A DNA stretch of 11,763 nucleotides, taken from positions 1 through 11,763 of the IMG/VR virus record IMGVR_UViG_2700989507_000007; one strand, 5' to 3'. The stretch is from a virus. Lineage: Duplodnaviria > Heunggongvirae > Uroviricota > Caudoviricetes. Both the position numbers and the translations under genes were made by a program. Each line of letters starts with the position of its first letter. Positions within the stretch are counted from its first letter, which is position 1. Shown here in pieces: positions 8,612 to 10,018 of the stretch. The notes below the pieces were generated by a model. The model made no database searches. It was given only the letters and a program-made list of their open reading frames with translations, and was not told where the DNA came from.

Positions 8612-8809
8612 ATGCTAAAACAGCAGGATATGACAGAAACCGCCAGAGTGGTGTTTAATGAATTAAGCGTTACCGAACCGGCGACAGTCGGGGAGATAGC
8701 GCAGAATACTTACCTTTCACGCGAACGCTGCCAGTTAATACTGACTCAGCTGGTTATGGCGGGTCTGGCAGACTATCAGTTCGGTTGTTACAGACGCCTT
8801 CCGCAGTAA
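8612..8809 (+). CDS. small protein with an HTH-like segment, 65 aa (MLKQQDMTETARVVFNELSVTEPATVGEIAQNTYLSRERCQLIL...)
   Basis: Track ORF 8477..8809 begins inside the terminator; ATG 8612 is the more plausible start (alternative ATG 8630). Confidence 0.45.
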   Translation: MLKQQDMTETARVVFNELSVTEPATVGEIAQNTYLSRERCQLILTQLVMAGLADYQFGCYRRLPQ

Positions 8810-8836
8810 AGGCTTTTTTATTTGTGGTAAATGGGC

Positions 8837-8867
8837 GGCTGGTGGGTGTTAGGGGCACCCACCAGCC
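8837..8867. promoter_or_regulatory. perfect 12-bp inverted repeat (GGCTGGTGGGTG / CACCCACCAGCC) with a 7-nt spacer, between the small HTH gene and the methyltransferase gene
   Basis: Seen directly; no T-tract follows, so not a classic terminator. A second near-palindrome TGCTTTGCGCAAAAGCA lies at 8910-8926, ~35 bp before the methyltransferase ATG. Confidence 0.4.
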
Positions 8868-8959
8868 ATCTGCTCATGCGTTGGGTTCACAAGCAAACCT
8901 CAGGCCCACTGCTTTGCGCAAAAGCAGAATGAGCCTATCAGAGACAGGCTTAATGATCC

Positions 8960-10018
8960 ATGCTTAATACTGTAAAAATATCCAGTTGTGAGTTAATCAA
9001 CGCCGACTGCCTGGAATTTATCCGGTCGTTACCCGAAAATTCTGTTGACCTGATAGTCACGGACCCGCCGTACTTTAAAGTGAAGCCTGAGGGCTGGGAT
9101 AACCAGTGGAAAGGGGACGAAGATTACCTTAAGTGGCTGGACCACTGTCTGGCCCAGTTCTGGCGGGTGTTAAAACCTGCCGGAAGCCTTTACCTGTTCT
9201 GTGGGCATCGCCTGGCATCTGATATTGAGATCATGATGCGTGAACGTTTCAACGTGCTTAACCATATCATCTGGGCGAAGCCGTCCGGACGCTGGAACGG
9301 ATGCAACAAGGAAAGCCTGAGGGCGTATTTCCCCGCCACAGAGCGCATTCTGTTCGCGGAACATTATCAGGGGCCGTATCGTCCGAAAGATGCCGGGTAT
9401 GCGGCGAAGGGCAGTGCACTGAAACAGCATGTGATGGCCCCGCTGATTTCTTACTTTCGTGATGCGCGCGCGGCCCTGGGGATAACGGCAAAACAGATTG
9501 CAGATGCCACAGGAAAGAAAAACATGGTGTCGCACTGGTTCAGTGCCAGCCAGTGGCAGTTACCGAACGAGGATGATTACAGAAAACTTCAGGTGCTGTT
9601 TGCCCGGGTGGCAGAAGAGAAACATCAGCGGGGAGAACTGGAAAAGCCACATCACCAACTGGTCAGCACATACAGTGAGCTGAACCGGCAGTATGCCAGC
9701 CTGCTGGAAGAGTACAAATCACTGCGGCGTTATTTTTCCGTATCGGCAGCCGTTCCTTATACGGATGTCTGGACGCACAAGCCTGTGCAGTATTATCCGG
9801 GCAAACATCCCTGTGAAAAACCGGCAGATATGTTGCGGCAAATGATTACCGCCAGCAGTCGTCCGGGTGACCTGGTTGCAGATTTCTTCATGGGGTCCGG
9901 TTCGACAGTCAAAGCCGCGATGGTGCTGGGGCGTCGTGCAATTGGTGTCGAGCTGGAGGCTGAACGTTTTGAGCAGACCGCAAGGGATGTACAGAATTTA
10001 ATCAGAAAGAGGGAGTGA
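8960..10018 (+). CDS. DNA methyltransferase, beta-class (N6-adenine or N4-cytosine), apparently orphan, 352 aa
   Basis: Track ORF 8960..10018; catalytic DPPY motif near the N-terminus (LIVTDPPYF) and an FxGxG SAM-binding motif near the C-terminus (FFMGSGST). No restriction-enzyme-like gene nearby. Confidence 0.8.
   Translation: MLNTVKISSCELINADCLEFIRSLPENSVDLIVTDPPYFKVKPEGWDNQWKGDEDYLKWLDHCLAQFWRVLKPAGSLYLFCGHRLASDIEIMMRERFNVLNHIIWAKPSGRWNGCNKESLRAYFPATERILFAEHYQGPYRPKDAGYAAKGSALKQHVMAPLISYFRDARAALGITAKQIADATGKKNMVSHWFSASQWQLPNEDDYRKLQVLFARVAEEKHQRGELEKPHHQLVSTYSELNRQYASLLEEYKSLRRYFSVSAAVPYTDVWTHKPVQYYPGKHPCEKPADMLRQMITASSRPGDLVADFFMGSGSTVKAAMVLGRRAIGVELEAERFEQTARDVQNLIRKRE

Follow-up and report, generated by a model that had tools for sequence, protein, structure and literature searches.

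M.EcoGII and M.EcoGI, carried by prophages of Escherichia coli O104:H4 strain C227-11, are the closest described relatives of the gene considered here. As presented in PMC5778455, M.EcoGII is a prophage-encoded, non-specific adenine methyltransferase that is toxic on expression, goes unexpressed in the lysogen, binds and methylates RNA, and belongs to 'a very large family' in which the enzyme of phage 1720a-02 is named as very similar; its proposed role is to shield progeny DNA from restriction. Homologues in O111 Shiga toxin-producing E. coli, with 92-94% amino-acid similarity to M.EcoGI/GII, were described as 'nonspecific' and as inactive in culture (PMC6602927). The 'transcriptionally silent' state of a non-specific methyltransferase in lysogens is only presumed in the literature. 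In phage Mu, translation of mom, a toxic DNA-modification gene, is switched on when the Com protein binds the com-mom mRNA. The subject of this report is a cassette in an 11,763-nt stretch of a tailed-phage genome (IMG/VR record IMGVR_UViG_2700989507_000007, positions 1 to 11,763; hereafter the window) that consists of a small open reading frame (ORF), two palindromes and an orphan methyltransferase gene approximately 90% identical in its product to M.EcoGII.

The 65-amino-acid ORF, both palindromes and the methyltransferase gene were listed in the original prediction for this stretch, and all are present at the positions it gave. There, the small protein and the palindromes were proposed to form a controller-like unit of the kind that accompanies restriction-modification systems. 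From comparison of related loci we conclude instead that the palindromes are probably helices of a conserved, apparently undescribed mRNA leader that occurs from Escherichia to Vibrio. What appears to be new is this placement of the palindromes in a leader whose long-range helix, P6, pairs with the start region of the methyltransferase gene, together with its optional small-protein accessories.

A candidate mRNA leader upstream of the methyltransferase gene

The spacer between the small gene and the methyltransferase gene, approximately 150 nt, is the most conserved part of the cassette, with between-genera nucleotide identities of 71-88%, compared with 59-77% for the small gene, 64-74% for the methyltransferase gene and 31-53% for the third codon positions of the latter. 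Its predicted fold takes in both palindromes (Table 1). Palindrome 1 is helix P3, and with its extension P2 it makes an 18-bp interrupted helix (8831-8877; -33.7 kcal/mol, z=-5.5). Palindrome 2, an imperfect 6-bp hairpin in which U8910-U8915 pairs with A8921-A8926, belongs to P4 (8903-8935; -14.9 kcal/mol, z=-2.8). Neither palindrome is followed by the U-tract of a Rho-independent terminator. In the window the preceding hairpin, P0, has little stability (-6.8 kcal/mol, z=-0.4), and other genera preserve it through compensating changes in its 3' arm (CCUCCAGUAAUGGAGG, CUGCCAGUAAUGGCAG); at the P0 position in Yersinia, the leader is directly preceded by a strong terminator.

Pairing across related leaders was assessed in two alignments fitted to the model structure. 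In alignment A5, composed of 46 distinct enterobacterial leaders, 98.7% of cells were paired, compared with 26-43% in slid controls; in A7, composed of 47 distinct and more diverse leaders, the corresponding values were 88.8% and 29-42%. Changes on both sides were seen in 24 of the 33 pairs of A7, and its covariation score of 0.404 (0.04-0.08 for slid and 0.17 for shuffled alignments) was reached by none of 500 shuffles. Helix P3 has many independent compensated variants across clades, with 5' and 3' arms that read GGCUGGUGGGUG and CACCCACCAGCC in the window, GACUGUAAAAGUG and CACCUUUACAGUC in Proteus, GGCAGAAGAGUG and CACUACUUCUGCC in Yersinia, and GACUGCUGCAUG and CAUGCAGCAGAC in Orbus. In both alignments G.U pairs occur at many helix positions, indicating that the helices can form only in plus-strand RNA. 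A screen of all columns against all for covariation, made on a MAFFT alignment, was dominated by clade structure and was set aside.

The leader did not correspond to a family in Rfam 15: the best overlapping match in the window region, to P26 on the minus strand, scored 24 bits where the gathering score is 36 (E=0.03), and five diverse relative loci gave no match at E<=0.1. A search of the literature on prophage small RNAs (sRNAs), Stx pR' regions and M.EcoGII regulation yielded no description of the leader or of the small gene; the anti-sRNA genes of prophages (AgvB/AsxR, Pas sRNA literature) are located elsewhere, 3' of the moron, and the available portions of the M.EcoGII paper (PMC5778455) make no mention of an upstream winged-helix gene or a leader.

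Three single-stranded stretches, AAUGGGCG, AACCAAGGCCCA and GAGCCUAUCA, are invariant across families. The first of these lies at the 5' edge of the leader, holds the AUG at 8831, and is unchanged from E. coli to Vibrio. A mini-ORF that starts at this AUG (8831-8932, 33 codons in the window) was considered as a coding feature and rejected, as it encodes no conserved peptide; it has 7 codons in Salmonella and Kluyvera, 4 in Plesiomonas, 4-18 in several genera and about 41 in Yersinia.

Palindrome 1 had also been noted for a Chi-like octamer and its complement, and exact Chi (GCTGGTGG) is indeed present at 8838-8845 on the plus strand and at 8859-8866 on the minus strand, and again at 8521-8528. 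Across 11.8 kb, the window holds seven exact copies (5272, 6630, 7036, 7088, 8521, 8838 and 8859; four on the plus strand and three on the minus strand), against 0.42 expected from shuffles, and the enrichment reaches beyond the hairpin to span the whole nin/late region. In the Proteus and Plesiomonas leaders the octamer is lost while pairing is retained, so the conservation of Chi is probably secondary to a constraint on the RNA.

Pairing of the start region in divergent leaders

The methyltransferase gene lacks a Shine-Dalgarno sequence, and P6 pairs positions -1 to -11 of its start region and, in the window, the AUG as well. In every divergent leader variant examined, the segment that follows P2 is complementary to the nucleotides that immediately precede or include the start codon of the following ORF, with a sequence and register that differ between clades. 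The pairings of this type are GGUCA with UGAUC-U-AUG, GUCAU with AUGAC, CAUGGU with ACCAUG, AUCAUGA with UCAUGAU, and AGGG..GAG with CUC..CCCU. This complementarity is kept also where a Com-like gene, and not the methyltransferase gene, comes next. As the start region is paired in every clade examined, the leader most likely throttles or gates translation of the toxic methyltransferase by start-site pairing.

Energy calculations on 44 leaders are consistent with this fold. The conserved structure is the minimum free energy (MFE) structure in about half of them and is either the MFE structure or within ~5 kcal/mol of it in most, and most leaders also have positions -6 to -1 relative to the AUG base-paired. 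For the window, enforcing the conserved fold gives -61.0 kcal/mol, compared with -63.4 kcal/mol for the MFE structure, and the AUG itself is paired.

Alternative folds were also examined. One alternative helix (8869-8878:8888-8897) has a position with four pair types, and another alternative pairing, UGGGC at 8832-8836 with GCCCA at 8904-8908, is invariant. Compared with the conserved fold, the alternatives are a median of ~5-6 kcal/mol less stable (range -8.7, i.e. more stable, to +18), and columns 58/84 of A5, the strongest covarying pair, are compatible with a bulge-linker pseudoknot within the closed fold as well. The alternative folds are not decisively supported, and we do not claim a switch between open and closed folds.

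The small winged-helix protein and the distribution of leader accessories

The small gene is protein-coding, with between-genera changes that fall mostly in third positions (e.g., 7/5/31 by codon position in comparison with Salmonella). Its product matches PHROG 331 (E=1.4e-37), and the AlphaFold model (mean confidence score, pLDDT, of 91) has the H1-S1-H2-H3-wing topology of a canonical winged helix. A Foldseek search of the model against the PDB returned generic winged helices only (MarR, IclR and the N-domains of O-methyltransferases; best E=2.5e-3), which is uninformative as to its target; a weak TrmB match (E=2.6e-3) was below cutoff, and neither NCBIfam nor PADLOC gave a match. The protein has only two conserved cysteines. 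Candidate targets for it are the leader RNA, the box in front of its own gene and the enzyme. Its relatives, in 334 clusters, are confined to Enterobacterales. By sequence inspection, the small gene has a good ribosome-binding site, which the methyltransferase gene lacks.

A bipartite, promoter-like box precedes the small gene. Both of its blocks show little or no variation between genera and flank a spacer of fixed length and unconserved sequence; the second block is CAGAGTTATCTGTATGTCAC-like, the box as a whole has a poor -10 element, and a sigma-70 scan did not call it. The box is found in all genera that have the small gene and is missing where the gene is missing. The region upstream of the small gene yielded no consensus RNA structure.

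When genomes were scanned at the species level with an alignment of the small protein, 34 loci were recovered, ranging from Escherichia to Proteus, Providencia, Mixta, Mangrovibacter and Plesiomonas. The methyltransferase gene lies downstream in 31, at a start-to-start distance of ~320-356 nt (mostly 339-356); of the remaining three, one is interrupted by a contig end and the others are decayed or incomplete. In metagenomes, all 75 close methyltransferase loci have the small gene, but that scan used the methyltransferase alignment and returned close relatives only (83-92% identity), so that it informs linkage and not diversity.

More distant loci gave a different picture. Among 159 loci found with Vibrio- and Yersinia-type methyltransferases, in which the small gene was scored with a hidden Markov model at E<=1e-3, 31 have both leader and small gene, 77 have the leader without the small gene (13 of them with a Com-like ORF), 19 have the small gene without a detectable leader and 32 have neither. 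The small gene is thus missing in 77 of the 108 leader-bearing loci of this diverse sample, and in examples of such loci the leader stands directly behind a terminator. Since the leader so often occurs without the small gene, while the small gene is almost never found without the methyltransferase, the small gene is an optional accessory specialised for the methyltransferase cassette and not an obligatory partner. The leader itself was found in phages and prophages of Enterobacterales, Vibrio and Orbus.

A different small protein is found in the Vibrio anguillarum clade, where a zinc-ribbon ORF of 36-41 amino acids with a CxxC..CxxC pattern lies between leader and methyltransferase gene (locus L205, 761-886; loci L204-L216). 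It matches PHROG 6417, 'translational regulator' (E=2e-5), and, below cutoff, Pfam Zn_ribbon_Com (16 bits). Its AUG lies within the closing helix of the leader, and the methyltransferase gene follows it behind a GGAGG site.

Two kinds of rearranged locus were also observed. In Erwinia amylovora (L199, 889-2001 and 3614-4264), the small gene is reduced to a C-terminal remnant beside an inserted pair resembling an RNase toxin and a CdiI-like immunity protein, leader and methyltransferase gene are intact, and a HicAB pair follows the methyltransferase. Some prophages (L014, 3206-4048; E. coli hits H47/H48) have other cargo, in one example apparently an AraC-type regulator, in place of the methyltransferase gene and the 3' part of the leader, and retain the small gene with only the 5' half of the leader, as far as the P3 loop; this places a recombination junction inside the hairpin.

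The methyltransferase gene and its late-operon setting

The methyltransferase is a member of the M.EcoGII family by sequence criteria. Pfam N6_N4_Mtase (PF01555) matches residues 29-340 (E=5.4e-44), PADLOC assigns it to MTase_II (E=1e-158), and its translation has the motif order of the beta class, in which the catalytic motif (TDPPYF, residues 34-39) comes before the target-recognition region and the SAM-binding motif (FFMGSG, 309-314) after it. Aligned over its full length with a reference copy of M.EcoGII (PMC11551740, supplementary file 5, machine-read and with evident reading errors), 315 of 349 positions are identical and 327 of 349 similar, with 2 gaps (352 versus 349 amino acids). The best phage match is phage 1720a-02, with 90.4% DNA and 89% protein identity for the methyltransferase. 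A search of the PDB by sequence found distant beta-class relatives, including M.RsrI, CcrM and M.MboIIA, and no structure of M.EcoGII. It is probably a sequence-non-specific N6-adenine enzyme, as judged from its relatives.

The enzyme is an orphan, as had been proposed: neither the window nor the flanking 12 kb of the identical locus in E. coli C325, where a restriction partner might have lain just outside the analysed region, contains a nuclease ORF, and the methyltransferase of Stx2 phages has the same orphan arrangement. The proposed protection of progeny DNA from restriction is likewise its most likely role, as suggested for M.EcoGII (PMC5778455). The gene is ordinary and already known, since the M.EcoGII family has been described and the cassette has matches in 3058 of 5426 complete E. 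coli genomes, at up to 8 places per genome, and in Stx2 phages; the window holds a further copy of a gene that prophages carry very commonly.

The window is a segment of a lambdoid prophage, of which 8380-10060 is 100% identical to E. coli C325 (NZ_CP124819.1). Its genes run in the order DUF968 gene, RusA gene, Q-like gene, terminator, 65-amino-acid ORF, palindromes, methyltransferase gene, two tRNA genes and TerB-like gene, and RefSeq annotates holin, lysozyme and terminase genes downstream of the cassette in C325, which agrees with the late-region position originally assigned to it. The Q-like product matches Pfam DUF1133 (E=2.9e-105), Phage_antitermQ (31 bits, cutoff 26) and PHROG 753, 'anti-termination protein Q-like' (E=1.6e-75). 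The terminator between the Q-like gene and the cassette folds at -20.1 kcal/mol (z=-3.6), and nearly all of 22 aligned diverse relatives have at this position a GC-rich hairpin and T-run of unrelated sequence. In Stx phages with other Q types, homology to the window begins at ~8511-8520, just past the terminator. These two features are the pattern expected if each Q type owns its pR'-tR' unit and the cassette is cargo.

Distant family members (Yersinia, Erwinia, Orbus, Xenorhabdus, V. anguillarum) likewise lie between a Q-type gene and lysis genes. From this position, Q-dependent read-through is most likely the route by which the methyltransferase is expressed. In Stx2a/c/d phages the cassette lies between Q and the tRNA genes and stx2.

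A late-operon cassette with a probable translational brake

We consider it fairly probable that all of these features have a joint explanation, namely a late-operon M.EcoGII-family cassette whose enzyme protects progeny DNA and whose leader is a translational brake. In the lysogen, as in other lambdoid prophages, transcription from the late promoter would stop at the terminator or terminators; after induction, Q-modified RNA polymerase would read through them. The enzyme would then methylate replicating phage DNA, so that progeny would escape restriction, and the host would be spared the toxic methyltransferase activity until it was doomed. The leader would provide a second, translational brake or gate on the methyltransferase.

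A broader proposal is that the leader is a widespread, undescribed cis-regulatory RNA that gates translation in the M.EcoGII family, with lineage-specific small proteins (the winged helix in enterics, the Com-like zinc ribbon in vibrios), a ligand or the enzyme itself as effectors. We regard the case for and against this proposal as evenly balanced. If true, it would supply the missing explanation for how toxic methyltransferases are silent in lysogens and available in lytic growth.

Several points weigh against these proposals. The covariation counts come from alignments whose fitting to the model structure favours that structure; the helices were not recovered when 38 very diverse leaders were aligned and folded blind to structure (MAFFT/RNAalifold), and covariation outside P3 and P6 comes largely from few clades. 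The leader was undetected, with default search filters, in 51 of the 159 distant methyltransferase loci. Both Q-dependent expression and the braking role of P6 are what we infer from position and predicted structure; a helix that ends 1-2 nt before the AUG is not necessarily inhibitory and might serve to set up a standby site or to make the mRNA more stable, and the box upstream of the small gene could give Q-independent transcription. With regard to the enzyme, the ~90% identity to M.EcoGII is approximate because of the errors in the machine-read reference copy, and the non-specificity of the window allele is assumed from its family membership.

Alternative explanations

The winged-helix protein could act as Com does on mom. 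Made first, it would bind the leader RNA and open the start-sequestering fold, so that translation of the methyltransferase would need both Q-dependent transcription and accumulation of the small protein. Such an arrangement would suit a default fold that hides the start region, the contrast in ribosome-binding sites between the two genes, the tie of the winged-helix gene to this cassette and no other, and the Com-like zinc-ribbon ORF at the same place in the V. anguillarum clade; Mu com-mom is an established precedent. However, most distant relatives keep leader and methyltransferase without the winged-helix gene, and there the leader must work without the small protein. The protein carries a net charge of about -1 and lacks any RNA-binding signature, and the winged helices that it resembles are generic DNA-binding or dimerisation domains. 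A distinct open fold is weakly indicated, given the lower stability of the alternative folds and the compatibility of the A5 columns 58/84 pair with a pseudoknot in the closed fold. We think this mode of activation unlikely.

Sensing or autoregulation is a more doubtful idea, in which the leader would be a riboswitch-like aptamer (e.g., for S-adenosylmethionine or S-adenosylhomocysteine) or a site bound or methylated by the methyltransferase, capping the amount of enzyme. The multi-helix leader with invariant unpaired stretches is more elaborate than a simple sequestering hairpin, one position of the possible bulge-linker pseudoknot has four types of pair, and PMC5778455 reports that M.EcoGII binds and methylates RNA. 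Nevertheless, no Rfam riboswitch matched, and it is the degree of conservation from which the idea derives.

The hairpins might otherwise determine the fate of the transcript, as extra terminators, RNase III sites or stabilising stem-loops without specific control of translation. P0 with its U-run is terminator-like, a strong terminator adjoins the leader in Yersinia, and the P2+P3 interrupted helix is similar to the sites that RNase III cuts in phage transcripts. However, no U-tract follows P3 or P4, and this explanation accounts neither for the complementarity between an internal segment and the start-codon region in every clade nor for the invariant unpaired motifs; we hold it to be improbable.

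The controller-like unit of the original prediction, in which the small helix-turn-helix protein would bind the palindromes as DNA operators, in the manner of a C protein, and so time transcription of the methyltransferase gene, is very improbable. A small winged-helix gene does stand directly upstream, almost never without the methyltransferase, and the palindromes do lie between both genes. The palindrome arms, however, vary by compensatory changes that preserve G.U pairs, as is typical of helices in plus-strand RNA, and are embedded in a larger fold with long-range pairs. The winged-helix gene is absent from most of the leader-bearing distant relatives, its product is not an Xre-type C protein, no restriction gene accompanies it, and the palindromes are downstream of the small gene, away from its promoter. 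The general intuition of a regulatory unit placed before a dangerous gene has held up; what has not is its level, which would be RNA and translation and not DNA operators, and the role proposed for the small protein.

That palindrome 1 is kept for Chi in both orientations, for protection from RecBCD or as a recombination stimulus, is scarcely credible: exact Chi is on both strands of the hairpin and enriched in the window, and the Chi-bearing 5' arm is retained in most enterobacterial genera, but only the plus-strand copy is widespread, with its complement restricted to the perfect palindrome of the window type, because elsewhere the 3' arm is bulged or wobble-paired. The octamer is replaced and the helix kept in Proteus, Plesiomonas, Yersinia, Xenorhabdus and Vibrio, and the G/U-rich arm is the one expected to be more constrained in an RNA helix.

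Features of the locus

Table 1. Positions of the cassette, its leader helices and the flanking late-operon features in the window.
Feature	Position	Strand	Basis or remark
Q-like late antiterminator gene	7823-8386	+	DUF1133 family; RefSeq start equivalent to 7835
tR'-like intrinsic terminator	8466-8488	+	GCCACC-GGAA-GGUGG then U8; between Q gene and cassette
Conserved bipartite promoter-like box	8550-8587	+	CTTGCTG, variable spacer, CA(A/G)AGTTAT..GT.TGTCAC
65-amino-acid winged-helix protein, an optional cassette accessory	8612-8809	+	PHROG 331
P0, weak terminator-like hairpin	8796-8819	+	Terminator scan; over small-gene stop codon, followed by U-run
Structured methyltransferase mRNA leader (predicted), ~140 nt	8820-8959	+	RNAalifold and covariance model R1
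Helix P1	8823-8827:8887-8891	+	Alternative partner for part of the P6 5' strand
Helix P2	8831-8836:8872-8877	+	6-bp extension of P3
Helix P3 (palindrome 1)	8837-8848:8856-8867	+	12 nt, 100% complementary, 7-nt loop
Long-range helix P6	8884-8894:8948-8959	+	In the window extends to 8878-8881:8960-8963, pairing AUG
Helix P4	8903-8915:8921-8935	+	Palindrome 2 (8910-8926) is its tip
Beta-class N6-adenine DNA methyltransferase, M.EcoGII/M.EcoGI family, orphan, predicted non-specific	8960-10018	+	352 amino acids
tRNA with CAU anticodon and tRNA-Arg(UCU)	10059-10291	+	Downstream cassette boundary; ARAGORN, Rfam tRNA, RefSeq of C325 locus

The first of the two tRNA genes (10059-10134) was called tRNA-Met by ARAGORN and is annotated as tRNA-Ile in RefSeq (lysidine-type, ileX/ileZ-like); with tRNA-Arg(UCU) it makes up a rare-codon pair typical of Stx-type phages. 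Directly 3' of tRNA-Arg is a strong terminator (10298-10334; AGGCUCGC-UUUG-GCGGGCCU then U6), which overlaps weak, sub-threshold Rfam matches to STnc100 and isrB. Further along the late operon, 10460-10891 encodes a TerB-family, tellurite-resistance-like protein (Pfam TerB, E=2e-16; no PADLOC match).

Two features were seen elsewhere in the window. On the minus strand, an IS3-family insertion sequence, which we take to resemble IS629/IS1203, occupies 2438-3651 (orfA, 108 amino acids, 3325-3651; orfB, 295 amino acids, 2438-3325); the C325 prophage, otherwise collinear, has no transposase at the matching position, so the window derives from another strain. In the nin region (5433-5995, minus strand), a ParE/RelE-family toxin (5433-5732) and a ParD antitoxin (~5738-5995) are encoded, with the same annotation in the C325 locus.

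Significance

The methyltransferase adds nothing new, its family being characterised and M.EcoGII being sold as a reagent. A leader that hides the start codon would, by contrast, supply a concrete second layer of control for a toxic, non-specific methyltransferase. Many Stx2 phages have the cassette between Q and stx, and elements of the leader, like the nearby terminators, are also on the transcript that leads to the Shiga toxin genes. The small accessory proteins, winged helix and Com-like zinc ribbon, offer a way into comparing the means by which phages gate hazardous DNA-modification enzymes.

Comparison with known systems

M.EcoGII and M.EcoGI (E. coli O104:H4 C227-11 prophages) have the same length class and beta-class motif order as the window enzyme, and M.EcoGII is similarly a prophage-borne orphan, silent in lysogens according to PMC5778455. 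About 10% of residues differ, including some in the central target-recognition region.

The Mu com-mom system resembles this cassette in that a late, cytotoxic DNA-modification enzyme is encoded behind a small upstream gene on the same transcript, with mRNA structure that in the cassette is predicted to occlude the start, and the Vibrio sister clade has a Com-like zinc-ribbon ORF in the corresponding position. In contrast to Com, the small protein of the window is a winged helix and not a zinc finger, and a Com-type protein is absent from the window; the enzyme is an S-adenosylmethionine-dependent methyltransferase and not Mom, and the leader is a multi-helix structure of ~140 nt and not a single hairpin. 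Activation by the small protein also cannot be general, as so many leader-bearing loci lack the gene. The comparison would extend to the logic of the mechanism only, in which the occlusion of the start appears to be supported structurally.

Restriction-modification systems with C proteins share with the cassette a small helix-turn-helix-type protein beside a methyltransferase and palindromes nearby. They differ in having a restriction gene and an Xre-type protein, whereas here the protein is a winged helix and the palindromes are downstream and RNA-like; none of the defining features of the C-protein/C-box family is present. The alpha-class promiscuous adenine methyltransferases of phages (Drozdz et al., as cited in PMC5778455) are likewise phage-borne, orphan, context-independent and presumed to act in anti-restriction, but have the opposite motif order and no detectable sequence relation to the window enzyme.

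With regard to its genomic position, the cassette occupies the same place as the 'moron' cargo of lambdoid late regions after Q/pR'-tR', such as stx and tRNA genes in Stx phages (PMC4104026, PMC6266700), and would be expected to depend on Q read-through as they do. It differs in that it comes with a conserved leader and, optionally, a small gene headed by a promoter-like box.

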